Below, piece by piece: positions 9,573 to 30,418 of a DNA stretch of 32,000 nt. Made by a program: the position numbers and the translations under genes. The stretch is from the NCBI GenBank assembly GCA_025839675.1, contig CP104013.1:630001-662000 (forward strand), given 5' to 3'. A model generated the notes under the pieces. The model had not been told where the DNA came from and searched no databases. It saw only the letters and a program-made list of their open reading frames with translations. The stretch's first letter is position 1; each line of letters starts with the position of its first letter. The DNA is from Candidatus Lokiarchaeum ossiferum (lineage in GTDB: Archaea > Asgardarchaeota > Lokiarchaeia > Sigyniarchaeales > Promethearchaeaceae).

Positions 9573-10211
9573 TTATTTTTCGGAAATAGACAAAAGAGAG
9601 AACTGCTTGGATATTATATAGTTTGCTTCCGAACGAAATTTACTAACTATTTTATGTTCACGTTCTAAAACTTTCATCCGAAAATCATCGTAAATTTCCT
9701 TCCCTCTCATGCTCTGAGCTTTTTTTGTCTCATGATAAGTTAAATCAATATAAATATTAAAATCACCGGTAAAATGTAGAGAATACAATCCTTCCAAAAT
9801 TAATACAGAAATACCGCTAAAATCTGTAATAAGTGTATCTACGCGATCATTAATTAAATCGACACATGGTAAATTCCCAACTTTATCTGATTTAAAATCT
9901 AAAATATTTTTTATAATTAAATCCCAATCATATTCCGTAAAATTAATTGCAGAAATTCCTTCCTTTTTCCTCCATTCTAATCGATTATTAGGAGGAATTC
10001 GATAGTAGTTATCGGTGTGGAGAATTTTTGTAAGAATTCCTTCTTTCTTTAAATATCTACCTACCATGTGAGCGACTTCACTCTTTCCAGAACCAGATTC
10101 TCCACCGATTGTGATAATTAATTTTTCCCTTCTTGTTTTAAGATATTTTTGAACTATCTCATGGGCAACATTTTTATGTTTTTCCTCGATTAGTAGAACA
10201 TCACCTAACAT
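9573..10211 (-). CDS. uridine kinase / phosphoribulokinase-family P-loop kinase
   Basis: P-loop GGESGSGKSEVA, then LHTDNYY, NFTEYDWDLI...LDFKSDK, LPCVDL...DRVDT, VLILEGLYSL and IYIDLTYHETKKAQSMRGK follow the Udk/PRK family order. Candidate starts at 10211 or 10232 both overlap the upstream GH65 stop codon (10201-10203). Confidence 0.75.
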   Translation of the reverse strand: MLGDVLLIEEKHKNVAHEIVQKYLKTRREKLIITIGGESGSGKSEVAHMVGRYLKKEGILTKILHTDNYYRIPPNNRLEWRKKEGISAINFTEYDWDLIIKNILDFKSDKVGNLPCVDLINDRVDTLITDFSGISVLILEGLYSLHFTGDFNIYIDLTYHETKKAQSMRGKEIYDDFRMKVLEREHKIVSKFRSEANYIISKQFSLLSISEK

Positions 10212-13200
10212 GTATTTCACTCCATTGTTCATTAATTAAAAAATATTCTTTACCCCTAACTCGGATTGCTTGTTCTATTACTGAGTCACTTGAAAATTTA
10301 ATTCTGACATTTAAATTTGAGAGTTCGAAGGAATAACGACAACCTTTCAAGTTGAATGAAAAATTCAAGCATCGCCAATGTGCAGGTAATCGAGGGTCAA
10401 TTTCTAAAAAATCCGAGAACAAATTCACACCTGCATAACCAAACAATATCATACAATAAGAACCACCCATAACTCCAGTATGAATTCCTTCTCCAGTTGT
10501 TCCATTCTGAATATCAGAATAATCACATGATAGTGTTTTTAAAAAAAAATCGAATGATTCTTTATATCGTCCCAGCAGATTTAAAACATGAGAATGTACT
10601 AGATAACTTAAGGTAGAACCATGTGATGTTCTTTTGTAATAATAGTCAAAATTTGTTTCCAAAAACACATTCGGAATTCTATAGCCATTATTAGATAAGA
10701 TAGATTCAACTTCACATTTGGGTAACATATAAAAGATCATAAGTAAATCCGCTTGTTTGATAGCTTGAAAACTATTGACATCCAAATTTTCAGATTTGAG
10801 AATTCGGTCAAGTCGATTAATGCATTCATATTTTTTCCGATATTCATCCAAATTTAGTTCTACTAGATTTAAAAATCCTTCAAACTGAGAAATTATCCCA
10901 TCGTCAGTAATTTCAATAAAAAGGTTTGTGCTAATTCTATCCCAAAGGTTCAATTCTTTTTCAGTTAATCCTATAGATTTGAATAATGATAATTTATCCA
11001 ATTTCGGCAATTCTGATAAAATTAAGAGAGTTTTCTTCAAAAGCCAAGAAACCAATATATTGGTATAAGAATTGTTATTGATTCCACGATCTGGCTTATC
11101 AGGATAATGTTCATGGAATTCATCTGGACCCATTACATCCTTTATAGAATATCGTCCAGTTTTTGAACTTAAATGTGAGATTGATGCCCAAAATCTACAT
11201 ATTTCTAATATAGTAATCAAACCTTTTTCAAAGAAAAATTGATAGTCCTTAGATACATGGAAATAATTCAAAATGTTATAAGCAATTGATAAATTCACAT
11301 GACGTTGTTTAATACTATGGTCTTCGCTCCAAATACCTGTCAATGGATTTAAGTGCATCTTTTGTGTTTCTTCTCTGCCATCTAAACCACTTTGCCATGG
11401 ATATAATGCCCCACTATACCCTTGTTCTTTTGCATTTTTTCTTGCTTGATCTAATCTATCAGTTCGGTAAATAAGGATGCTTTGTGCGATTTCTGGATAA
11501 TGAAGATTATAAAATGGAAAAAAAAATAATTCATCCCAAAAGAAATGTCCACGATAGGATTCACCATGTAATCCACGAGCAGGAATACTAAGATTTGACT
11601 CTACACTGAGAGGAGAACCACTTATTATAAGGTGATATAAATTAATTCGAATTAATTTCTGTACATATCGATCACCTACTATTTTGACATCAACTTTATT
11701 CCAAATTTTTTTCCATTCTTCATAGCTACTCTTAGCAATATCATCAAAAGCATCAATTTTTGATAGTTTGGAAGTAGAATCGTCAATTTTTTTTTGAATT
11801 TCATTTTTATTATAAAATTTACAAATATATACAATTTTTTCCAAGCTGATTGAATCATATTGGCTAATATTTTCGGATAAGGTTGCCTTAACACAAGTTT
11901 TTTCTTTAGTTAAACCAATTAATGGGAAACATTTATCTTCATTTTTTGATAGCATAATTTTTGCTGAAACTAAAATGTGAATATTTGATTGAATTGTTGA
12001 AGACACATTCGAGATAATATCACCCTTGGAATATAGAAATACTGTCTTCAAATGCTTTGAATTCAAACCGTTATATCGCTTTACACCCTTATTTTCAATA
12101 GAACTATCAATAGAAGTTTGAAATGTAATTTTGCCAGAATAATTCAAAGAAGTAATTCCATATTGAATTGCCCCATAATTAGGATTTTTCATGCTAATAA
12201 TACGTTTAGAAACAATTTTAGTTCTATTTTTATTCAAATCTTCAACAACGATAAATCGATTTAGCACACCTCTTTTTAAATTCAAGGAGCGTTTAAATTG
12301 TAGAATTTTCCAAGAAGTAGGATCGAACCATTCACCAGAATTTATCTTAAATTTAAGGGGAAGCCAATTTGGACAATTTACTAAGTCTAAATTTGATATT
12401 ATTTTATTTTTAACATTAGATTCAGTTCGGTTATATACTCCTGCAATATAGGTTCCAGGATAATTATTTATTGTTGCGTTTACCTCTTCAAAAGTGCCAC
12501 GAGTGCAGATTACACCATTTCCAATTGTACAAAGGGATTCTCTCATCATTTCTAGTTCAGGAGCATAGTGATTATATTCAATTTTCCATTGAGATTCATT
12601 TAATTCAAAACTAAACCAATTTTTAATTCTTTCAAATGAAATATCTCGTAGATCTTCTACTACAATATCTGCACCATTTATTTTCAATTCATTTTGATTA
12701 TTTTCACGGGCAACACCAATTATTAGACCAAAATTACCATCTCTTCCTGCTTGAACTCCTGATATTGCATCTTCAACTATTACGGTAAGATCATATGGAA
12801 CTCCAAGATTGTCTGCAGCCTTGTGGAAAATGTCTGGTTGAGGTTTTCCTCTCAACTCTAATTTTTGTAAGGAATTTCCATCAACAATAGTCTCAAATAG
12901 CTGGATAATTCCAACCGATTCTAAAACTAATCGACAATTTTTACTCGAGGAAGCAACACCCAACTTAATGGATTTTTTCTTTAAATCTTTAATTATTTCC
13001 AAGGATGATGTAAAAACTTCTACTCCTTGTGTTTTAATTAAATTTTCTAGTATCTGGTTTTTTTTATTACCTAATCCACAAATTGATATCACATCGGGTG
13101 AATCGTCTTGACTTCCATATTCGAGACTAATATTTCGAGATAGAAGAAAGGATTCTACTCCTTTATAACGAGGTTTCCCATCTACATATAGTAAATAATC

Positions 13201-13362
13201 ACTCTCATGGGTAAATTCTTTAAAATTTTCACCTAATAAGTTAGAACGTTGTTTTAGATAACTATTAAACATGTTCTTCCAAGCCAAACTATGAAGCTGG
13301 GCGGTGTTTGTTATTACACCATCCAAATCAAAAATTACTGCCTTGCAAATCATTATGTTCAT
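10201..13362 (-). CDS. fusion protein: N-terminal beta-phosphoglucomutase (HAD) + glycoside hydrolase family 65 disaccharide phosphorylase
   Basis: HAD motifs are present: IFDLDGVITNT (DxDG), GVASSS, GKPQPDIF, VEDAISGVQAG. The GH65 catalytic-region pattern GLHGESYRGHFFWDELFFFP and the later TGEGIHTGVMGGSY follow. 1053 aa. Confidence 0.9.
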   Translation of the reverse strand: MNIMICKAVIFDLDGVITNTAQLHSLAWKNMFNSYLKQRSNLLGENFKEFTHESDYLLYVDGKPRYKGVESFLLSRNISLEYGSQDDSPDVISICGLGNKKNQILENLIKTQGVEVFTSSLEIIKDLKKKSIKLGVASSSKNCRLVLESVGIIQLFETIVDGNSLQKLELRGKPQPDIFHKAADNLGVPYDLTVIVEDAISGVQAGRDGNFGLIIGVARENNQNELKINGADIVVEDLRDISFERIKNWFSFELNESQWKIEYNHYAPELEMMRESLCTIGNGVICTRGTFEEVNATINNYPGTYIAGVYNRTESNVKNKIISNLDLVNCPNWLPLKFKINSGEWFDPTSWKILQFKRSLNLKRGVLNRFIVVEDLNKNRTKIVSKRIISMKNPNYGAIQYGITSLNYSGKITFQTSIDSSIENKGVKRYNGLNSKHLKTVFLYSKGDIISNVSSTIQSNIHILVSAKIMLSKNEDKCFPLIGLTKEKTCVKATLSENISQYDSISLEKIVYICKFYNKNEIQKKIDDSTSKLSKIDAFDDIAKSSYEEWKKIWNKVDVKIVGDRYVQKLIRINLYHLIISGSPLSVESNLSIPARGLHGESYRGHFFWDELFFFPFYNLHYPEIAQSILIYRTDRLDQARKNAKEQGYSGALYPWQSGLDGREETQKMHLNPLTGIWSEDHSIKQRHVNLSIAYNILNYFHVSKDYQFFFEKGLITILEICRFWASISHLSSKTGRYSIKDVMGPDEFHEHYPDKPDRGINNNSYTNILVSWLLKKTLLILSELPKLDKLSLFKSIGLTEKELNLWDRISTNLFIEITDDGIISQFEGFLNLVELNLDEYRKKYECINRLDRILKSENLDVNSFQAIKQADLLMIFYMLPKCEVESILSNNGYRIPNVFLETNFDYYYKRTSHGSTLSYLVHSHVLNLLGRYKESFDFFLKTLSCDYSDIQNGTTGEGIHTGVMGGSYCMILFGYAGVNLFSDFLEIDPRLPAHWRCLNFSFNLKGCRYSFELSNLNVRIKFSSDSVIEQAIRVRGKEYFLINEQWSEIHVR

Positions 13363-13396: not shown

Positions 13397-14515
13397 TTAA
13401 AGTTGTTGAATCGGATTTTTATGTATTAGATTTAATTCCGATTTTGCATCAAATACATGAATTTTCTCATTTGGGAAACTCACATATGCATGATCTCCCA
13501 TTTTTGCACTATAAAACCCATTAGCGACAGCTAAAGATGCAAATTTGCCTTTAAACTCGAACTCTATTATTGTATTCGCACCTAAATATTCAACCACATC
13601 TATTTTGACCTTAAAAGCATCTTGTCGTTTGTCTGGAGTAATTTGAATATGTTCTGGTCTTATTCCTAGTATCAAATCTGTCGAATTGGCAGTTTTAATT
13701 TTTTCTACAATACTTGAATTAATTGAATATTGATTCTGCCCAAAAACGAGATTGGAACCTTGCAATTCACATCTCATGAAATTCATAGATGGAGCGCCAA
13801 TGAATCCTGCAACAAATATATTTCGAGGAGTATTATATACTTCAGATGGAGTTCCTACTTGTTGTATATACCCCCCATTCAAAATGGTTATCCTATCAGC
13901 CATGGACATGGCTTCAACTTGATCATGAGTTACATAAATCAAGGTAGTTTGAAGCTGCTTTTGAAGTTTGATAATTTCACCACGCATTTGAGTTCGAAGT
14001 TTTGCATCTAAATTACTTAATGGTTCATCAAAAAGAAAAACTGTTGGATCTCTTACAATACACCTTCCTAATGCAACTCTTTGCCTTTGACCACCACTTA
14101 ATTCTTTCGGTTTTCGATCTAATAAAGATTCAATCTCCAAAATTTTTGCAGCTTTCACGACATTTCGATTGATGATTTCTTTATCCACTTTTGCAAGCTT
14201 CAAAGCAAAACTCATATTTTCGCGAACATTCATATGAGGATAAAGCGCATAGCTCTGAAATACCATAGCAAGGTTTCGTTCCTTTGGAGGTAACTCAGAA
14301 ACATCTACATCACCAAAAAAAATATTTCCATCAGTTACATATTCAAGCCCAGCAATAATATTTAGACACGTAGATTTTCCACAACCAGATGGACCAACAA
14401 GAACCATAAATTCTTTATCTCTTATAGTCAAATCTATTCCTTTTAGTACATGAACATCTGGCTTAAATATCTTATTTACTTTTTTCAATTCTATATTTAC
14501 CATTTTTTTCACCAA
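13397..14515 (-). CDS. sugar ABC transporter ATP-binding protein (MalK/UgpC type with C-terminal regulatory/TOBE-like domain)
   Basis: Walker A GPSGCGKST, LSGGQRQRVALGRCIV, Walker B VFLFDEPLSNLD, H-loop YVTHDQ. The 372-aa length is typical of MalK-like ATPases. Confidence 0.9.
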   Translation of the reverse strand: MVKKMVNIELKKVNKIFKPDVHVLKGIDLTIRDKEFMVLVGPSGCGKSTCLNIIAGLEYVTDGNIFFGDVDVSELPPKERNLAMVFQSYALYPHMNVRENMSFALKLAKVDKEIINRNVVKAAKILEIESLLDRKPKELSGGQRQRVALGRCIVRDPTVFLFDEPLSNLDAKLRTQMRGEIIKLQKQLQTTLIYVTHDQVEAMSMADRITILNGGYIQQVGTPSEVYNTPRNIFVAGFIGAPSMNFMRCELQGSNLVFGQNQYSINSSIVEKIKTANSTDLILGIRPEHIQITPDKRQDAFKVKIDVVEYLGANTIIEFEFKGKFASLAVANGFYSAKMGDHAYVSFPNEKIHVFDAKSELNLIHKNPIQQL

Positions 14516-14522
14516 TTTTTAA

Positions 14523-16625
14523 TTATCCTTTTACCGCTCCACTAGTAATTCCTTTGATAATGTGTTTTTGAAAAATTAGAACAATAATGACCAGCGGTAC
14601 TGTAGCAATCGAAGTTGCAGCCATTAAGGCAATATCAGTATCCCAATTTGCAGACAAACTTGCAGGGTTTTGAACAAAACGCAAAATTGCCCGAGGAATT
14701 GTATGATTATCATCCGATATTAACCAGATTTGAGCAAACAATAGTTCATTCCAAGCAGCAATGAAAACTAAAATAAAACATGTAAATAAACCTGGAACTG
14801 TTAAGGGCATTATCACTTTTCGAAATACTTGAAAATTTGAAGCACCATCAACACGTGCTGCTTTCCATAAATCTTCTGGAATCTCCTCAAAGAAAGATCT
14901 CAAAACAAAAGTTGCGAGTGGAAGATTGAATGCAGCATATGGTAAAATTAACCCAAAAAGACTATCTGTTAGATCCAGAAATGGAAATATGTTTGAAATG
15001 ACTTTTGTTTGAATAAAATATGGAATAATGATTACTAAAGGTGGCAAACTAGTCATTGTAAAGATAATCAGCGATGTTATTTTTTTAAATTTGAAGTCAA
15101 ATTTCGCTAATGCATAGCCAGTTAAAGAACCTACAATTAAAACAACTAGGGCAGTTAAACCAGATAAAATAAATCCATTAATTAGCGCTCTATCAAAGGT
15201 TGCTCCAAAAAATTCTGAATTTTGAAATACTACCTTGAATGCATCTATGGATGGAAATTTGGGCAGAATTTCAAAACTATCTTGAGCAATGTATGGATTA
15301 CGAAAAGCTCTTAAAACAATCCAAATAAATGGGAAAGCACAGAATAGACACATTAAAAATACAGAGATAACTAATCCTATCTTTTTAATTACACGTTTTC
15401 TTCGAAACCATTGAATTTCTTTATTTGAAATTTTCCTCAAAAGAAATGTTGTCTTATCACCATCATGGATTGAGTTCTCATTATCGTCGTTATTATTTTC
15501 ATTATTATCCAGAATTTCATCAGTGAGAGAAGGTCCTTCTTTGGATTTTCTCATTAGAGAAATCGAAGATAATTTGGTTTTGGGAGATTTTGAGGTTCGA
15601 TCTACAGACAATATCTTAAAAATGAAAACCGCGAATATAATAATGATAAGAAATTCTAACATTGCAACTGTGGAGGCCTTTCCAAATTCTTGAGATCTAG
15701 ACCAAAAATTTACTGATTGATATGTCATTGAATATACAGTATCATCCCTAAATATTACAATCGCATCATATACACGAATTGCATCCATAACACGAAATAC
15801 TAATGCAGTAGCAACACCAGGTCTAATAATTGGCCAAGTAATCTTTGAAAATTTTTGCCAAGGAGTTGCTCCAGCGATATCTGCAGCACCATATAAATCT
15901 TCAGAAACAACCTGTAAGGCAGCTAGAATTAGTAAACTGAAGAATGGAGTAGTCTTCCATACATCAATTAGAATTGAAGATAACATTGTTGTTGAAATGG
16001 GTACCATCATGAATCCAGGAGAAAATGGAATCAAACATGGTAAATCAAATAGAATTGATACATCAGCACCAAAAAAAGCAATTCCATTTCCACCTAATCC
16101 TTGAATTAAAGAATTAAACAAACCATAATCACCTGATGGTGCAAGTATTTCATATCGAAAAATAGTTGCTGAAGCAACAGTTGGCAACGCCCATGGTATT
16201 AAAAGTGTTGCTCTAGCTAAGCCTCGACCTTTAAACTCTTTATTCAATAGTAAAGCAAAAATTAAACCAAGTAATAATTCTAAAGTCACAGCAACGATCG
16301 CAAAGAAAAGTGTTTGGTAGGTATATTGCCAAAAATGATTGGCATTTATCCCTCCATGAAATAATAATTCATAATAATTAATTAAAGTGATTTTATCACC
16401 GAAAAAACCATTTGAAGCAGAACTATTTGTAAAACTAATCAAAATACCTATTATTAGTGGGAAGAAAATTCCAAAAAGAAAAACTAATACCGCTGGAATT
16501 AATATCTTATATGCAAATCTTTTTTCTGATTTATTAAGTTCCTTCTTATTTTTCTTACCCAGCGATAAATTTTCATCTGGATTCGGTCTTGATACTGTGT
16601 TATATATTTTTTTAGATTCTTCCAT
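14523..16625 (-). CDS. fused double permease of a carbohydrate (CUT1-type) ABC importer (MalF-like + MalG-like halves in one polypeptide)
   Basis: Two EAA-loop motifs are present: AADIAGATPWQKFSKITWPIIRPG and AARVDGASNFQVFRKVIMPLTVPG. They are separated by a low-complexity acidic linker (LDNNENNNDDNENSIHDGDK). 700 aa. Confidence 0.85.
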   Translation of the reverse strand: MEESKKIYNTVSRPNPDENLSLGKKNKKELNKSEKRFAYKILIPAVLVFLFGIFFPLIIGILISFTNSSASNGFFGDKITLINYYELLFHGGINANHFWQYTYQTLFFAIVAVTLELLLGLIFALLLNKEFKGRGLARATLLIPWALPTVASATIFRYEILAPSGDYGLFNSLIQGLGGNGIAFFGADVSILFDLPCLIPFSPGFMMVPISTTMLSSILIDVWKTTPFFSLLILAALQVVSEDLYGAADIAGATPWQKFSKITWPIIRPGVATALVFRVMDAIRVYDAIVIFRDDTVYSMTYQSVNFWSRSQEFGKASTVAMLEFLIIIIFAVFIFKILSVDRTSKSPKTKLSSISLMRKSKEGPSLTDEILDNNENNNDDNENSIHDGDKTTFLLRKISNKEIQWFRRKRVIKKIGLVISVFLMCLFCAFPFIWIVLRAFRNPYIAQDSFEILPKFPSIDAFKVVFQNSEFFGATFDRALINGFILSGLTALVVLIVGSLTGYALAKFDFKFKKITSLIIFTMTSLPPLVIIIPYFIQTKVISNIFPFLDLTDSLFGLILPYAAFNLPLATFVLRSFFEEIPEDLWKAARVDGASNFQVFRKVIMPLTVPGLFTCFILVFIAAWNELLFAQIWLISDDNHTIPRAILRFVQNPASLSANWDTDIALMAATSIATVPLVIIVLIFQKHIIKGITSGAVKG

Positions 16626-16668
16626 TATTTCACCCTGTTCGATTCAATAAAAAAAAAGTGTAAAAATT

Positions 16669-18120
16669 TTAAGTTCGTCTCTTTCTAACTAAAATAATAC
16701 TTACGGTTAGACTCAAAGCAACAACTAAAAAGCCTATAGAATAACCCGGAATACCATTTCCAGGAATTTCTATTTTACCACTGATTATTTCAGTAATTGC
16801 AGATTCCATCTTTCCTAGACCTTCATTAACTGATTTTACACCACCTAATATATCATTAAAATAATCCGCAATTTCTACTGAAAAAGTAGCATATTTAGGA
16901 TGTACAGGTCGAGCAAGTGTACGTTCAGCAGCGGATTCGAATTCTGCTACCCACTCATATCCAGCAGGTAAGTTATCAAAAGCAGATTTCAATGCAGGAA
17001 AATTAGAGCATTCAGTCAATTCGGCAAGTTGAGCAACTTCATCGCCTAAGAATCGTATTAAATTCATAGCTTCAGTTTTTTGAGTTCCACTCGTTGGAAT
17101 GGCTAAAACAGCACCACCCACTACAGCCGATTTTTCAGAATCTCCACCTGTTTTAGTTGGCATTGCAGTTACGCCAAACTGGACATAATTACCAGAACCA
17201 TCTGTAGCATTAAGTCCTGCTTCAGCTTTTGAATTTCCATAAGCAAATGGCCATTGTCGCATAAAAATAGCTTCTCCAGCCGTCCATTTTCCAACAGAAG
17301 AACCTTCATCATGAGTTAACCCTTCTCGAGGAACAATGTAATCTGTACCTTGAACACCAGTATATCTAGGAGCGATCAAACCATTCAAAAATGTCATGGC
17401 AGATTGAACATCTGTGTTATTCAAATCAACTTCTCCATCTGAATCAAATATACTTGTTTGACCAGCACTCCCCATCCATTCAATGAAATTACAAACCCCA
17501 CCTTCATATGCATCAAATTGTCCGACGAAGCCAACTAAATCGGGATCTAAGGCTTGTTCTGTTGCGTTTGCAAGAATTGTATTTGCTGCGGCTTTGAATT
17601 CATCCCAAGTATCGAAATCATCTACAGAATCGTATCCATTTCTAGCTAAAATATCTGCTCGATAGAAAAGTACACCTAAATTCAAGAAGTATGGATATGC
17701 ATATGCCTTGCCATTATACATGCTAGAATCGACCATCCCGCTAAAATAATCATCAAATTCCCCTGATTCAAGAGTAAGCTCATCAATCCACCCATTTTCA
17801 GCAAATTGAGCTGTCCAAACCGTATCAAGCCCAACAACATCGAATTCAGAACTCCCTGCAGCCATCTGAGTCGTAAGATAAACAAGCTGATCGTCAGCAC
17901 GGGTTCCAGAAGAAATAACTTCGACTGCATCCACGCCGGTTCCAAGTGTATCAGCCAAAAATTCATCAATAACAGCTTCCACTCCTGGTGCTTGTTGGTC
18001 TGTTACTATGATTTTTAAAGTTACACCTTGAGCTTTAACAGGCTGAATTATTCCCAAGCCGAGAGTAAAAACCATCATACCTAAAAGAGTAATAGATACA
18101 AATCCATTTTTTGTTTTCAT
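16669..18120 (-). CDS. extracellular sugar-binding protein (ABC family-1 SBP) with N-terminal signal/anchor and C-terminal PGF-CTERM-like anchor
   Basis: The ATG at 18120 gives MKTKNGFVSITLLGMMVFTLGLGIIQPVKAQG, which is signal-like; the track start at 18177 adds 19 aa. The body is SBP-like (..YAYPYFLNLGVLFYRADIL.., ..GGAVLAIP..). The C-terminus is PGYSIGFLVVALSLTVSIILVRKRRT. Confidence 0.85.
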   Translation of the reverse strand: MKTKNGFVSITLLGMMVFTLGLGIIQPVKAQGVTLKIIVTDQQAPGVEAVIDEFLADTLGTGVDAVEVISSGTRADDQLVYLTTQMAAGSSEFDVVGLDTVWTAQFAENGWIDELTLESGEFDDYFSGMVDSSMYNGKAYAYPYFLNLGVLFYRADILARNGYDSVDDFDTWDEFKAAANTILANATEQALDPDLVGFVGQFDAYEGGVCNFIEWMGSAGQTSIFDSDGEVDLNNTDVQSAMTFLNGLIAPRYTGVQGTDYIVPREGLTHDEGSSVGKWTAGEAIFMRQWPFAYGNSKAEAGLNATDGSGNYVQFGVTAMPTKTGGDSEKSAVVGGAVLAIPTSGTQKTEAMNLIRFLGDEVAQLAELTECSNFPALKSAFDNLPAGYEWVAEFESAAERTLARPVHPKYATFSVEIADYFNDILGGVKSVNEGLGKMESAITEIISGKIEIPGNGIPGYSIGFLVVALSLTVSIILVRKRRT

Positions 18121-18533
18121 TTTATCACTACCTACATTTTTGTACCAATTACAAATTTCTTGTCGTATTTTATACATACATCATTATTACTACATATCTG
18201 AAAGTTTTGACAAGCAAAATTTATACTGGCAATAATATTCTATCAGATTAGTATATAAACATTCGTATTTGGCTGCCACAGAATTGTACTGGAAATACTA
18301 ATACTGTAATGGGTTAAGGTGGACACATATGTTTTTTATTTCAAAATATGATAGATTTTTATTAAAAATATGTCTCAATAAATGGATAAAAACTTCTCAA
18401 AATAAGAAAAACTGTAAGAAATTTAACATCAGATTTTTTTCTGAAGATCAATCTCATTAATTTTTTAAAAAATCGAAAAGCATTAATAAAAATAATTCAA
18501 GAATTAAAAAAAAAAAAAATATGTTATTCAGAA

Positions 18534-22731: not shown

Positions 22732-23271
22732 ATGCCAGCCCATAAATTATTTTTATTTGGACTTGATAAAGCCGGAAAAACAACCTTATCGCATTTTATT
22801 AAAGAGGCAAAGGAAATTCAACCCCGTCCAACACTTGCGTTCAATTTGGATAAATGGATCATCAAGGATTTGGAATTTCAAATTTGGGATGCTCCAGGAC
22901 AAGTATCCCTTCGTTATGTCTGGAAAAATGGATTTAATCGGGCAAAAATATTAATGTTCGTTTTAGATTGTTCACATCCAGAACGGTTTGAAGAGGCTTT
23001 CACTGAATTTAATCAAGTTATCATGAATGCTGACACACGGGGAATCCCCTTAGTGTTCTGCTTCCATAAGTGGGATATTGACTTAGCTCAAGCAAGCTAT
23101 AATGATGCCAGAGCAGTTTTTAAACTTCCTCTTATCACTGATCGACCGGTATTTTCATATAGAACAACAGTGAAAAATTTAGAAACATCAAAAATTCCAA
23201 GTAATGAGGATATTGGTGGTTTAAAGTTAAAACTTGTAGAATTAATTCAATCAGAACGATGGGGCACCTAA
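22732..23271 (+). CDS. Arf/Sar/SRbeta-like small GTPase (divergent G3/G4)
   Basis: G1 is GLDKAGKTT (the Arf-type GLDxAGKT). G2 region is PRPTLAFN. G3 is WDAPGQ. G4 is HKWD in place of NKxD. 179 aa with no Gly2 or N-terminal amphipathic helix. Confidence 0.85.
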   Translation: MPAHKLFLFGLDKAGKTTLSHFIKEAKEIQPRPTLAFNLDKWIIKDLEFQIWDAPGQVSLRYVWKNGFNRAKILMFVLDCSHPERFEEAFTEFNQVIMNADTRGIPLVFCFHKWDIDLAQASYNDARAVFKLPLITDRPVFSYRTTVKNLETSKIPSNEDIGGLKLKLVELIQSERWGT

Positions 23272-23310: not shown

Positions 23311-24276
23311 ATGCAAATAATCACTACAATCTATGAAACTAAACTTATAATCGCTGATTCACTCCCTGAATCAGAAATAACAGATAAAAAGAAAGCACTT
23401 ATTACAACACTATTCAAGAAAAACCTTGATGAAGTTAAAGCGAAACGATTGCTGATTAAAGAAGAACGAAATTCACTCAATTATTTGTTTTTGTTGCCTG
23501 CTCCTCAATCTCAAGAGGAAATCATTGTAATGTTAAGTATTTTTTTGGATGAACATGAAAACACGCTAGTATTCCAACCTATCATTATGAAATATGTTGA
23601 AAAAATTATTGCTACCCCAGAAATATATTCCGGTGTTTATTTTACACAAAATAATGATAACGTTTATTATAAAGAATGCGCACATCGTCTCCACACCTTG
23701 TTGGAACACTGTCATGATGAAATTCTGAAAAAAGAAAAAAAATCTCAAGTTGGTTTGGCTAATATTATTTTCTTTGGAATTCAAGCAGTTGGGAAAACTT
23801 CTATAATTAAACACTTGATTAATGGCCAATTTATCCAAACTCGTCCAACACTCGCACCTCAAATTTTAAAACTCTATTTTGAGCAGGTTGATTTTCGAGT
23901 TTTTGATGTAGGAGGACAAAAAAATCTTCGAAAACTGTGGACAACCAAATTGCAAAGACCCCAAGCAATAATTTATGTCCTTGATTGTTCTCATGATATA
24001 GAAGCCCTCAATGATTCTGTATTTGAATTTAATCGTATAATGAAACACTATTTTATAGAACATATAGATGCTGATAAGCTAAGAAAGATCCCTGTTTTAA
24101 TTTTGGCCAATAAAAAAGACATCAATCCAGATCTTACAATAGAAAATATCATAAATGACTACAATATATCAGCGTATGATATTAATTACCGCGTGAATCT
24201 TTGCTCTGCTCTTACAGGGGATGGATTGATTGAGAGTTTTCAATGGTTGACAAAAACAATCAAAATTTCAAAATAA
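23311..24276 (+). CDS. Arf-like small GTPase with about 150-aa N-terminal longin-like extension
   Basis: The C-terminal half has G1 GIQAVGKTS, G2 TRPTLAPQ, G3 FDVGGQKNLRKLW (Arf WDVGGQ..R.LW pattern), G4 NKKD and G5 CSALTGDGL. The N-terminal half has a beta-beta-alpha-beta-beta-beta-alpha residue pattern. Confidence 0.85.
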   Translation: MQIITTIYETKLIIADSLPESEITDKKKALITTLFKKNLDEVKAKRLLIKEERNSLNYLFLLPAPQSQEEIIVMLSIFLDEHENTLVFQPIIMKYVEKIIATPEIYSGVYFTQNNDNVYYKECAHRLHTLLEHCHDEILKKEKKSQVGLANIIFFGIQAVGKTSIIKHLINGQFIQTRPTLAPQILKLYFEQVDFRVFDVGGQKNLRKLWTTKLQRPQAIIYVLDCSHDIEALNDSVFEFNRIMKHYFIEHIDADKLRKIPVLILANKKDINPDLTIENIINDYNISAYDINYRVNLCSALTGDGLIESFQWLTKTIKISK

Positions 24277-24360: not shown

Positions 24361-24696
24361 ATGAAAGAAAGAAAAAAGATCTCGTTTAAATTAATGCCCG
24401 ATTTTCAATGTGACCCTCTTTGGTGGGGTAAAGATTCAGCTAAAGTTGGAAATATCGATCCAAATACCCTCCCCATTTCAAGCTTCTTAAAAAAAAAGTT
24501 GTATGATTGGGCAAAACAATTTGACTCAACCCTCAATTTAAAAGAACCAAATCGATCTACCGAATTTGAGGATTTGAATATTGTTCAATTTCAAGAAGAA
24601 GGGAAAAATATAAAGTATCTTTTGGAATGCGAGATTGGGCATAAATATCAAATTGAATATTGTTTACCTTCCCTTGAAAAAAAAACAGAACATTAG
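24361..24696 (+). CDS. hypothetical 111-aa soluble protein
   Basis: The ORF lies 84 nt downstream of the second GTPase on the same strand. No motif recognised (MPDFQCDPLWWGKD...LPISSFLKKKLYDWAKQFD). Confidence 0.5.
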   Translation: MKERKKISFKLMPDFQCDPLWWGKDSAKVGNIDPNTLPISSFLKKKLYDWAKQFDSTLNLKEPNRSTEFEDLNIVQFQEEGKNIKYLLECEIGHKYQIEYCLPSLEKKTEH

Positions 24697-27084: not shown

Positions 27085-28011
27085 ATGCAAAATCATGCTT
27101 ATTCTTCAAATCAATTTAATTCAAATATATTTTTTGAATTTGGTAATTCAATGAAAAATTACGTCAAAGCATCCGTTATCGTAGCAATCATTGGCATTAT
27201 TGGTTCATTTATTATCCCATTTTTAGGAATTATTCCAATGTTGTATGGATCAGGTTCTTCAGGTCCGTATCAAACGATGGGAGGGATGATGCTAATTTCG
27301 AGTCTTTTTGGACTTGCTTCACTTGGATTATCTATTTTTGTTTTGGTAAGGTATATTCAATATTTATCGGCTCTTAAAAGAATTGGACAGACCTTAAATG
27401 ATTTCAATCTGCAAAAAGCCTATAAAATGGAAATTGGGACAATAATTGGTTCGATTATTTTTCCAATTATTCTCATTGCAACATTCGTTCCAGTTATTAT
27501 TTCCATGGTTAATGATCCCTATGAAGCTATGATCACGGGATTTTTAGGTTTGATTCTACTCGCCTTGTTGGGAGGCACAATAATATTCGTGCTATCAATC
27601 CTTGGAGTGATTGCTCTTGATCGATGGGGGGAACAATTCCGATATAATAATAATTTAATAGGGATTAATATTGCAGAAGGAATAAATTATATGAAGTGGG
27701 GAAGAATAATTGCACCATTCACAGGCGGTATTGGGTCAATATTTTATCTTGTCGGAATGTGGAAAGCAGGAACGAATTTAATGATTTATAAAGCAGGAGA
27801 AAATCAACCTGGAACATTCCAACCCAGTATGCCATCCTATCAGAGATCCTCCGAAACAAATTTCGACAGTTTTTCAGAGCAAACATATCGCCCAGATTCT
27901 ACATTAGGAGGAAACACCATAATTCCGTCCGGTTTTTGTTCGAAATGTGGACAAAAAATTCTCAATCTAAATTCTACTTTTTGTGAGAATTGTGGAAATA
28001 AACTCAAGTAA
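27085..28011 (+). CDS. polytopic membrane protein with C-terminal double-CxxC zinc ribbon (paralog 1)
   Basis: About 6 hydrophobic helices. Conserved blocks VRYIQYLSALKRIGQTLNDFNLQKAYKMEIG and MKWGRIIAPFTGGIGSIFYLVGMWKAGTNL. The C-terminus is CSKCGQK...FCENCGNKL. Confidence 0.7.
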   Translation: MQNHAYSSNQFNSNIFFEFGNSMKNYVKASVIVAIIGIIGSFIIPFLGIIPMLYGSGSSGPYQTMGGMMLISSLFGLASLGLSIFVLVRYIQYLSALKRIGQTLNDFNLQKAYKMEIGTIIGSIIFPIILIATFVPVIISMVNDPYEAMITGFLGLILLALLGGTIIFVLSILGVIALDRWGEQFRYNNNLIGINIAEGINYMKWGRIIAPFTGGIGSIFYLVGMWKAGTNLMIYKAGENQPGTFQPSMPSYQRSSETNFDSFSEQTYRPDSTLGGNTIIPSGFCSKCGQKILNLNSTFCENCGNKLK

Positions 28012-28096
28012 AGTTTTAGCCATAAAACACTCTTTTTTCTCTTTAAATTACCTATGAAAAAGATTTTTTAGGGTGTACCCCTATATTTTCCTTGCT

Positions 28097-29005
28097 ATGG
28101 AAAATCCCTATGCACCTTCAAATAGACACATTTCTGAACTTTATTTCAACCTAGGACAAGCGATGAAGCAATATGTAATCGCCATATTAGCTAGCTGTGG
28201 AATAGGAATAATTGGGCTTTTTTTAACAATATCTATGGGTCCTTACGTAACTTCAGAAGTTTATGCCCTATCAGGAAGTGCGGGGATGCAAATAGTCACA
28301 TTGGCAGCAATACCGGGAATTTTCAGCTTTTTGTGGATTGGTTTATTTACTTATATTGCAGTACGGTATTTTCAGTATCTTTCAAAATTAAAGGCCTTGG
28401 GAAATCAACTAGGCGATGTAAATTTACAAAAAACATATAAAATGGAAATCGGAGCCATAACATCAGGGATATTCTTGGTGATATTTGTTATTATCATTCT
28501 TATGCCAATCTCTCGATCACTATTATATAATCCAGCGAGATTCAATGTCTCAGGACTAATTGGTCTAATATTTTTGATTTTTTTTGGTGGAATTGCGGTT
28601 TATATATTCCAGATAATGAGCGTAGTGCATTTTGATAGATGGAGTTATTATCTTCAAATTTCTGATCCTAATATTACAACCTATTCAATTAAAGAAGGAA
28701 TGGGATTCATGAAATTTGGTAGAATACTTAATCCCTTTGTAAGCGGAATTGGAGAAATCTTTTATATGGTGGGAATGTGGAAATCCGGACAAAATTTGAT
28801 TAAATATTCAGGCATGAATAATACCAGAGTAGAGAATCCATCTATTTATGGCCAATTTTCCGAACCACATACACGAACCTATCGACCACTTCAAATGCAT
28901 CCAACACCAAGTCGACCACAGCATTTCTTTTGTTCAAATTGTGGAAACAAAATTACCCCTCCAGAATCCAAGTTTTGCCAAAATTGTGGGAATAAATTAT
29001 TCTGA
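28097..29005 (+). CDS. polytopic membrane protein with C-terminal double-CxxC zinc ribbon (paralog 2)
   Basis: The ATG at 28097 (MENPYAPSN) aligns with the paralog 1 N-terminus (MQNHAYSSN); the track start at 28073 is a GTG. Blocks VRYFQYLSKLKALGNQLGDVNLQKTYKMEIG and MKFGRILNPFVSGIGEIFYMVGMWKSGQNL are shared. The C-terminus is CSNCGNK...FCQNCGNKL. Confidence 0.7.
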   Translation: MENPYAPSNRHISELYFNLGQAMKQYVIAILASCGIGIIGLFLTISMGPYVTSEVYALSGSAGMQIVTLAAIPGIFSFLWIGLFTYIAVRYFQYLSKLKALGNQLGDVNLQKTYKMEIGAITSGIFLVIFVIIILMPISRSLLYNPARFNVSGLIGLIFLIFFGGIAVYIFQIMSVVHFDRWSYYLQISDPNITTYSIKEGMGFMKFGRILNPFVSGIGEIFYMVGMWKSGQNLIKYSGMNNTRVENPSIYGQFSEPHTRTYRPLQMHPTPSRPQHFFCSNCGNKITPPESKFCQNCGNKLF

Positions 29006-29296: not shown

Positions 29297-30418
29297 TCAC
29301 TCAAATTTATGCCTGAATTCGTTAAATTTTTTCAAAACTTGGAGAAAAATTTCATCCTTGAAAGATAGAGATTTCTTAAATTGAATAATCGGGTTCAAAA
29401 ATTCTTGAAAGGAATTTGATTCCTTAGGGTTTAATAGAAAAATGACAGTATACTCGTTAATATTGAAAATTAAATAAATATTTTTTGAAGAAATGAGAAT
29501 TATTCCGAAAAGTGGTTCTTTGTAGATATTTTCCATTATTGTATGAGATGTATTGTATAATGTGAGTGCATTGGCAATGGAATCTTCAGAACTTAGATTA
29601 TTTGCCGAATCTTTCTTAACTCTCACATTACCAGAATTATCCACAAGAACAAATGGATTTTCAATCTCAAAAAGTAATTTTCCAGGAGATTTAAGTATTT
29701 TTTGAACTTTTTTAGGTTTCAATTTTTGATTAAGCGCAATATTTGAATCATTTTCGAGAGTTTCATAAACGATAGTAATATCCTCATAATTTTTATATTC
29801 GAGCACGCGGAAATCAGAAGAAATAAGTGTCACCATATCAAGTTTCTCGGTCAACCTTTCTTCCACAATTCGATTTACGGCTTTTATTAGTACCATCGTT
29901 TGAAATCCCAGAATTTTTTTATCAAAGTATTCTTTTGCTTTACTATAAAGAACTTCACCATCAATATTGCTCAAATACAAGACACTGCGAATGTTATCCT
30001 CCTCATCATAGTTTTTTAAAATATTAATATAGTCAAAATAACCGTGAGATTTCAAAATACTATCTACATTCTTATGAAATGGATTAAAAGTACCAACATC
30101 GCCATTAAAATTGGTCACTTTCTCCAAAAATAAATCTAAAAACGTATCTCTGATTTGAATCAGGATTTTTCGGATTATTTTTTCAAATTCTTTATCCTTT
30201 GTTAAAATAACAAAAATTAAATCCTTATATCGATCAAAGATGTAAGTGGTTAAATTTAAAGTAATTTCTTCAATAACTTCCCCGCTTTGCCCTTTGGCAA
30301 ACATATTTAAGGCTGTGAGAAAACCAGAGATCAAATTTGCATCCGAATCATCATCATCACTTGTCCATGTGAAGTAACTAATTCCCGCATCATTCATAAC
30401 CAAAATTCGATCAATCAT
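29297..30418 (-). CDS. protein built of three tandem longin/roadblock-like modules (tentative)
   Basis: The 373-aa soluble ORF shows a threefold repetition of a beta-beta-alpha-beta-beta-beta(-alpha) residue pattern. The first module starts MIDRILVMNDAGISYFTW...ANLISGFLTALNMFAKG. Details are in the findings. Confidence 0.65.
   Translation of the reverse strand: MIDRILVMNDAGISYFTWTSDDDDSDANLISGFLTALNMFAKGQSGEVIEEITLNLTTYIFDRYKDLIFVILTKDKEFEKIIRKILIQIRDTFLDLFLEKVTNFNGDVGTFNPFHKNVDSILKSHGYFDYINILKNYDEEDNIRSVLYLSNIDGEVLYSKAKEYFDKKILGFQTMVLIKAVNRIVEERLTEKLDMVTLISSDFRVLEYKNYEDITIVYETLENDSNIALNQKLKPKKVQKILKSPGKLLFEIENPFVLVDNSGNVRVKKDSANNLSSEDSIANALTLYNTSHTIMENIYKEPLFGIILISSKNIYLIFNINEYTVIFLLNPKESNSFQEFLNPIIQFKKSLSFKDEIFLQVLKKFNEFRHKFE

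Follow-up and report, generated by a model that had tools for sequence, protein, structure and literature searches.

A Lokiarchaeial small GTPase that joins an Arf-like G-domain to a longin-fold domain without the signature motifs of its family

What does a longin-fold domain do when it is carried on the same polypeptide as an Arf-like GTPase? The question is raised by NEF87_000556, a gene of the Asgard archaeon Candidatus Lokiarchaeum ossiferum that occupies positions 23311 to 24276 on the forward strand of a 32,000-nucleotide (nt) stretch of contig CP104013.1 (positions 630,001 to 662,000), termed here the window. The open reading frame (ORF) encodes 321 amino acids (aa) and is 100% identical to NEF87_000556/UYP44271.1. 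It begins with an ATG directly after an upstream stop, with no earlier in-frame start, lies between ordinary genes and is annotated as a "hypothetical protein" or an "ADP-ribosylation factor-like protein." Orthologs in related Lokiarchaeum genomes are 97% and 86% identical. The evidence supports a longin-fold domain and an Arf-like GTPase in one ORF, whose product would be a soluble small GTPase with two domains, from a family of Lokiarchaeia. As to role, the balance tilts somewhat toward a soluble Arf-like switch whose longin module, although drawn from a family of the GTPase-activating protein (GAP) type, lacks the catalytic-pocket motifs and would serve as a non-catalytic docking or dimerization platform.

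The N-terminal part of the protein (aa 1-147) is predicted to be well folded. An AlphaFold2 model of this region, built with a 13-sequence alignment, has a predicted local distance difference test (pLDDT) score of 89.7 and a predicted template modeling (pTM) score of 0.85, and the segment is neither disordered nor folded as something unrelated to longins. Assignment of secondary structure by DSSP places strands at aa 2-8, 12-18, 47-52, 55-63 and 70-78 and helices at aa 25-45, 85-101, 103-112 and 118-146. The resulting topology is β-β-α-β-β-β-α-α, which makes up the longin-fold core (aa 1-112; 23311..23646), followed by an extra long helix running to the G-domain. This amphipathic helix, α4 (aa 118-147; 23662..23751), joins the core to the GTPase in the AlphaFold2 models and in comparison across the family. 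An N-terminal helix is absent and two C-terminal helices are present, the pattern that distinguishes longin from roadblock domains (PMC10933270).

Structural neighbors of the model point in the same direction. In a Foldseek search of the PDB, the first-ranked match was NPRL2 in GATOR1 (E 5.9e-4, probability 1.0), and other top matches included DENND10, the longin domain of Lst4 (template modeling [TM] score 0.50) and the Lokiarchaeota "Roadblock-Longin" structure 8yqg (TM 0.48). Longin matches of lower rank comprised a TRAPPII subunit, Npr2, FLCN, adaptor protein (AP) sigma subunits, LAMTOR and Ykt6. All matches with a probability of at least 0.96 are longin domains, whereas PAS/LOV and GAF/IclR ligand-binding domains appear at lower probability only. 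The model thus supports the assignment of aa 1-147 as a longin-fold domain. An earlier reading of the DNA from its letters alone (the sequence-only reading) had guessed the strands and helices of this region from the residue pattern and proposed that they follow the longin order. Every guessed element is found in the AlphaFold2 model, and the longin order is borne out by the topology and the best PDB neighbors, both of which derive from predicted structure.

Two candidate features of this region were rejected. Sequence-level links to longins were sought in Pfam (with the target and with 13, 50 and 51 family members) and in PDB profile searches with two alignments; apart from two weak matches to Afi1, the hits were noise from coiled coils such as NEMO and designed helical repeats. 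Additionally, the linker helix (aa 119-147; 23665-23751) is unusually rich in cysteine and histidine (ECAHRLHTLLEHCHDE). A metal site there was discarded because cysteine occurs in approximately 30% of family members and is exchanged for leucine, phenylalanine or isoleucine, as expected of hydrophobic core positions.

Conservation shows the N-domain to be a genuine domain, and it belongs to a large Asgard family. Searched against 1.84 billion proteins, its profile matches 403 cluster representatives with E≤1e-3, of which 186 reach E≤1e-10; the family thus comprises at least 403 clusters, and its usual fusion partner is an Arf-like G-domain. Among the best 150 representatives, 67 share the architecture of a longin module followed by a G-domain (longin-G), roughly 35 are short proteins and some 50 have a different C-terminal part. 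In 51 of these without a matched G-domain, the partners identified by Pfam include V4R (TRAPPC3-like; 11 members), PAS (8) and histidine-kinase ATPase (3) domains, as well as GAF and TPR. Such varied fusion partners indicate that the module is mobile. In species-representative genomes, a scan of limited scope returned five loci, all of them Asgard, and the longin-G loci among these belong to a Promethearchaeia metagenome-assembled genome (MAG), to Sigynarchaeum and to one unclassified "uncultured archaeon" MAG; the two Heimdallarchaeum hits have another architecture. Most G-domains fused to family N-domains keep the DxxGQ and NKxD motifs, and some members are clearly degenerate.

Several relatives depart from this layout. 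In two longin-G proteins (P0121, 1119 aa; P0139, 701 aa), the C-terminal tail is very long. The closest relatives of the G-domain in Heimdallarchaeum endolithica and aukensis (L010 and L011, 2498-3436) are 313-aa proteins in which the G-domain comes first and is followed by an uncharacterized C-terminal extension of about 130 aa.

Most of the family possesses a pair of motifs that NEF87_000556 does not. The family consensus reads "LSYFDxxxGPxVFxxxP ... NYxFxIPSxWARGxxExLM ... IYKAFY". A glycine–proline (GP) pair just before β2, beside the arginine finger, is specific to the GAP-type longins SMCR8, C9orf72, FLCN and NPRL2 (2025, PMC12290439), whereas FNIP2, NPRL3, adaptins, TRAPP and DENND proteins lack it (PMC12290439). 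Avl9, an Arf-GAP, and DENND6A, a GAP for ARL8B, carry their arginine finger between longin strands β4 and β5 (preprint 10.64898/2026.01.05.697756). In the family studied here, 104 of 128 near-complete N-domains aligned with hmmalign (81%) have GP ahead of β2 together with a β4-β5 loop arginine, the signature of longin-type GAPs (NPRL2, FLCN, SMCR8, Avl9). The N-terminus of NPRL2 was checked in PDB entry 6ces_N, where GP stands at residues 20-21 and the arginine is R78. In profile–profile alignment with hhalign, the β1-β2 region of the family falls on NPRL2 residues 9-41, and the two GP motifs coincide (probability 54%, E 1.3e-4), and in global mode the family "WaRg" falls on the NPRL2 "YsR78N" (E 1.5e-4, probability 25%). 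The NPRL2 homolog set consists mostly of fragmentary metazoan models, which lowers the power of the global comparison. The GAP signature of the family is accordingly a lead drawn from motifs and weak profile similarity and does not amount to demonstrated GAP activity. In members with both GP and arginine, these motifs suggest that the longin module most probably acts on the fused Arf-like domain as a GAP platform, either built in or supplied by a dimer partner. GP has been seen in some Asgard longins, whose GTPase partners were left open (PMC12290439), and no statement of a GAP-signature longin fused to an Arf-like GTPase was found in the literature consulted.

Among the longin-G fusions, 41 have both motifs, 5 the arginine alone, 1 the GP alone and 12 neither, and NEF87_000556 belongs to this last subgroup. 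In the β1-β2 turn (YETKLII, aa 8-14; 23332..23352), the GP is deleted in the hmmalign alignment of the 128 family N-domains (YET--KLII), and hhalign likewise leaves a 2-residue gap opposite NPRL2 G20-P21. In the β4-β5 loop (PAPQSQEE, aa 63-70; 23497..23520), Q68 occupies the position of the family arginine (WARG). The subgroup instead has a motif of its own in the family alignment, DEHEN (aa 80-84; 23548..23562), which follows β5 at the β5/α2 junction; it is specific to members without GP and arginine, a subgroup conserved down to 40% identity. NEF87_000556 is thus a degenerate form of the family with a fully intact G-domain.

That G-domain (aa 148-321; 23752..24273) is of the Arf type. The Pfam family Arf (PF00025) matches aa 150-317 with E=6e-33 and 114.2 bits, against a cut-off of 22.3 bits, and the next-best families are Ras (38.5 bits), Roc (38 bits) and SRPRB (31.4 bits); Gtr1_RagA gave no Pfam match to NEF87_000556 at E≤1. 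The best matches in a PDB sequence search were Arl3, Arf1, Arl8, Arf6 and Arl5, all of them Arf or Arl proteins (E approximately 3.8e-22 to 1e-17). In the full-length AlphaFold2 model, the G-domain aligns by Foldseek to Arf6, Arf1 and Arl1 with TM 0.84-0.85 and to 8oum and 8ouk, crystal structures of Asgard ArfR proteins, with TM 0.80-0.82. BLASTP gives 31% identity to human Arf1, with aa 152-211 placed on Arf1 residues 20-79 without a gap, from the P-loop through switch II; the single insertion relative to Arf1 is of eight residues and precedes β5. Because the alignment is gap-free from the P-loop to switch II, the interswitch has the length found in Arf, a prerequisite for the interswitch toggle.

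The nucleotide-binding motifs are likewise complete. G1, the P-loop, is GIQAVGKTS (aa 156-164; 23776..23802). Switch I with G2 is TRPTLAPQ (aa 177-184, with T180; 23839..23862), and G3 with switch II is FDVGGQKNLRKLW (aa 198-210; 23902..23940), which contains FDVGGQ and, by alignment to Arf1, the catalytic-type glutamine Q203. G4 is NKKD (aa 267-270; 24109..24120), and G5 is CSALTG (24202..24219), part of CSALTGDGL (aa 298-306). G1 to G5 and the switch-II glutamine are therefore all kept and, together with the Arf-length interswitch, they suggest that the domain should bind GTP and GDP and cycle between them. The sequence-only reading had described a complete C-terminal Arf-style G-domain; Pfam, the PDB sequence search, Foldseek and the Arf1 alignment agree with it, and the five motif strings that it quoted all stand in the protein. 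Grouping of the G-domain with non-Arf prokaryotic families was not seen in comparisons with hidden Markov models (HMMs) or with structures.

Canonical Arfs carry a membrane-binding amphipathic helix at the N-terminus, and NEF87_000556 has none: a 147-aa longin module stands before its G-domain, and the charged stretch EILKKEKKSQV directly precedes the first G-domain strand. Asgard Arfs with longin N-termini have been inferred not to act on membranes (Zhu et al. 2025, PMC11914678). Vargová et al. distinguish two clades, ArfR, the direct ancestors of eukaryotic Arfs, and ArfL, which is confined to Asgard archaea. Available counts for the original Lokiarchaeum MAG, GC14_75, give one ArfR and five longin–Arf-like fusions, so placement of the NEF87_000556 G-domain in ArfL is more likely than in ArfR. 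The characterized Asgard ArfR proteins (HodArfR1 and GerdArfR1; 8ouk and 8oum) share the G-domain fold. However, they are single-domain proteins that bind membrane through an N-terminal amphipathic helix, whereas NEF87_000556 has a longin module in that place and is 24-26% identical to them.

Fusions of this kind have been reported before. A count for Lokiarchaeum gave five longin domains joined to Arf-like GTPases (Klinger et al. 2016, as summarized by Dey, Thattai and Baum 2016, PMC4917890). In MK-D1, 74 small GTPases were modeled, of which 26 are combined with roadblock or longin domains, including longin–GTPase fusions annotated as Arf (Tran et al. 2024, PMC10933270), and the longin N-termini of Asgard Arfs have also been noted (Zhu et al. 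2025, PMC11914678). The longin–Arf-like architecture is therefore not new, and NEF87_000556 is a further member of a published class. The sequence-only reading had called the architecture unusual, which holds relative to eukaryotes but not within Lokiarchaea, where it is recurrent and published; 67 of the best 150 family representatives share it. NEF87_000556 resembles the fusions described in these three papers in domain order, in length (approximately 320 aa), in its occurrence in Lokiarchaeia and in having no N-terminal amphipathic helix. It differs from them in that it has not been individually described and in that it falls in the subgroup without GP and arginine, a distinction not drawn in PMC4917890, PMC10933270 or PMC11914678.

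How such a protein might work is suggested by comparison with longin–GTPase systems in eukaryotes. The best structural neighbors of the N-domain are NPRL2 (in GATOR1), FLCN, SMCR8/C9orf72 and Avl9/DENND6A, and the GP and arginine of the wider family are in register with G20-P21 and R78 of NPRL2. Of these GAP-type longins, SMCR8-C9orf72 and Avl9 act on Arf GTPases. In the eukaryotic systems, however, GAP and GTPase are separate polypeptides and a DENN module follows the longin domain, whereas NEF87_000556 is fused, has no DENN module and has lost both pocket motifs. Rag/Gtr proteins also combine a small GTPase with a roadblock/longin-superfamily domain as dimerization platform, a role that is putative in NEF87_000556, but their roadblock domain is C-terminal and their G-domain is of the Rag type, as opposed to an N-terminal longin and a G-domain that scores as Arf. 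The signal recognition particle (SRP) receptor similarly pairs a longin-like fold, the SRX domain of SRα, with the Arf-like GTPase SRβ. Unlike in NEF87_000556, the two partners meet in trans, with a transmembrane anchor on SRβ and an SRP-type NG domain on SRα; moreover, the G-domain of NEF87_000556 scores 31 bits for SRPRB and 114 bits for Arf.

Under the favored reading, the longin module (aa 1-112) and the long helix (aa 118-147) would replace the membrane-binding amphipathic helix of canonical Arfs, and the intact Arf-type G-domain would cycle between GTP and GDP. The longin domain, without GP and arginine, would dock the GTPase or dimerize and would have no GAP activity. Possible analogs of such a platform are FNIP and NPRL3, which are longin partners without catalytic activity, and the roadblock dimerization domain of Rag. 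The nucleotide state of the G-domain would then be coupled to a partner and not to a membrane. The sequence-only reading had put forward an intramolecular regulator or a dimerization platform as possible roles.

Several results weigh against this reading. No Pfam, NCBIfam or PDB sequence match was found for the N-domain, either with the target or with profiles of 13 or 50 family members, and no sequence or profile link connects it to a curated longin family or a solved longin structure. The Foldseek E-values are modest (approximately 1e-3) with TM scores of only 0.43-0.50, and the hhalign probabilities to NPRL2 reach only 25-54%. The full-length AlphaFold2 model has a pTM of 0.56 (mean pLDDT 83), which makes the inter-domain geometry uncertain. 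A conserved partner gene was not found: five homolog loci at no more than 47% identity have neither an adjacent GTPase nor shared neighbors. Finally, the subgroup-specific DEHEN might supply an alternative activity.

The genomic neighborhood offers one candidate partner. Directly upstream on the same strand lies NEF87_000555 (22732..23271), a divergent Arf-like GTPase of 179 aa (Pfam Arf 7.5e-28, Gtr1_RagA 2.3e-7). It is 32% identical to the G-domain of NEF87_000556 and has WDAPGQ as its G3 and HKWD as its G4, the latter with histidine in place of asparagine. NEF87_000555 ends 39 nt upstream of NEF87_000556, and a GGAG stands approximately 12 nt before the NEF87_000556 ATG. The two genes may be co-transcribed, and NEF87_000555 is a candidate partner only. 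The 86%-identical relative (L004) keeps the tandem as well as its neighbors (a DegT aminotransferase, a methyltransferase, GDPD and an FtsX/ABC transporter), and the tandem is found only there. GTPases of MK-D1 seldom share an operon with their regulators (Tran et al. 2024, PMC10933270), and the absence of a GTPase beside the distant homologs agrees with this rarity.

Four other explanations of the N-domain were weighed against a non-catalytic platform. It could be an intramolecular GAP or catalytic regulator of its own G-domain, acting through DEHEN or other residues (for example, asparagine or histidine) without an arginine finger. DEHEN is conserved in exactly the subgroup that lost GP and arginine, G-domains of the subgroup mostly retain DxxGQ and NKxD, and the covalent tether holds both domains near each other. 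Nonetheless, this explanation is unlikely: the motif lies at the β5/α2 junction, outside the β1-β2 and β4-β5 loops, where known longin GAPs have their GAP pocket, the full-length model contains no confident domain–domain contact, and to our knowledge a longin GAP without an arginine has no precedent. A second GTPase could instead be the target, with the longin domain binding NEF87_000555 in trans to form a two-GTPase heterodimer in the manner of SRX and GTP-loaded SRβ. Heterodimers of SRX with SRβ and of the Rag proteins are precedents for such an arrangement. The closely spaced, same-strand tandem and its preservation with its neighbors in the 86%-identical relative speak for this model, whereas the five more distant loci without an adjacent GTPase, and the general location of MK-D1 GTPases outside the operons of their regulators (Tran et al., PMC10933270), make it about as improbable as self-regulation.

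Binding of a small molecule rather than a GTPase is a further option, in which the N-domain would be a PAS/GAF-like sensor that gates the G-domain. The same module does stand N-terminal to PAS-histidine-kinase and GAF modules and to V4R, a ligand-binding module, and LOV/PAS, GAF and IclR ligand-binding domains are among its lower-ranked Foldseek matches. However, the matches at a probability of at least 0.96 are all longin, the absence of an N-terminal helix and the presence of two C-terminal helices follow the longin pattern, and the family-wide GP and arginine suit a GAP pocket better than a ligand pocket; a sensor is thus quite improbable. Decay of a paralog without a specific function would account for the loss of both signature motifs, and clearly degenerate G-domains do occur in some family members. 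The ORF and every G motif are intact in NEF87_000556, however, its orthologs are 97% and 86% identical, and its subgroup is conserved to 40% identity with a DEHEN of its own, so that decay is very improbable indeed. A non-catalytic docking or dimerization platform remains the favored role.

The rest of the window is devoted to sugar transport and metabolism and contains a few further observations. Between NEF87_000556 and the FtsX/ABC transporter genes, an ORF of 111 aa (24361-24696, forward strand) has no family match and is not conserved, since the 86%-identical relative has a 246-nt gap there; it may not be a gene. Approximately 5 kb away, a 372-aa protein encoded on the reverse strand (29297-30418) has in its first 85 aa a match (E 1.9e-8) to Pfam Fuz_longin_1, which represents the first longin domain of FUZ/MON1/HPS1. 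It is another longin-type protein, unrelated to NEF87_000556 and possibly resembling tri-longin guanine nucleotide exchange factors of Rab (RabGEFs), and hhalign found no match between it and the N-domain family. Two tandem genes on the forward strand (27085-28011 and 28073-29005) encode proteins of 308 and 310 aa, each ending in a zinc-ribbon and having N-terminal 280 aa without a Pfam match. On the reverse strand, a 1052-aa fusion of a HAD-type hydrolase and a complete GH65 glycoside phosphorylase (10201-13362) adjoins a sugar ABC transporter operon (13397-18177). Beyond the window, at two loci of the subgroup with GP and arginine (L005, 4948-5958; L006, 5082-5888; proteins P0009 and P0010), the longin-G gene faces a convergent gene whose product has faint TPR matches, an arrangement that might recur.

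At the regulatory core of membrane traffic and nutrient signaling in eukaryotes stand longin/roadblock platforms together with Arf, Rag and Rab GTPases, and Asgard archaea are where such platforms and such GTPases first occur together. A bolder interpretation, possible but doubtful, is that the family represents GAP-type longins and Arf-like GTPases in a single chain, which would indicate that longin GAPs originally acted on Arf-like GTPases. NEF87_000556 would then be an archaeal counterpart of FNIP/NPRL3, heterodimerizing with an arginine-bearing paralog or with the neighboring GTPase. If true, this single-chain unit would answer the question posed in Traffic in 2025 of which Asgard GTPases partner the longins that carry GP and arginine. 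The host is one of few cultured Asgard archaea, and the gene is thus open to experiment. The family-level signature may outweigh the single gene: members with the catalytic signature and their degenerate relatives make a natural pair for asking whether the action of longin GAPs on Arf-like GTPases predates eukaryotes.

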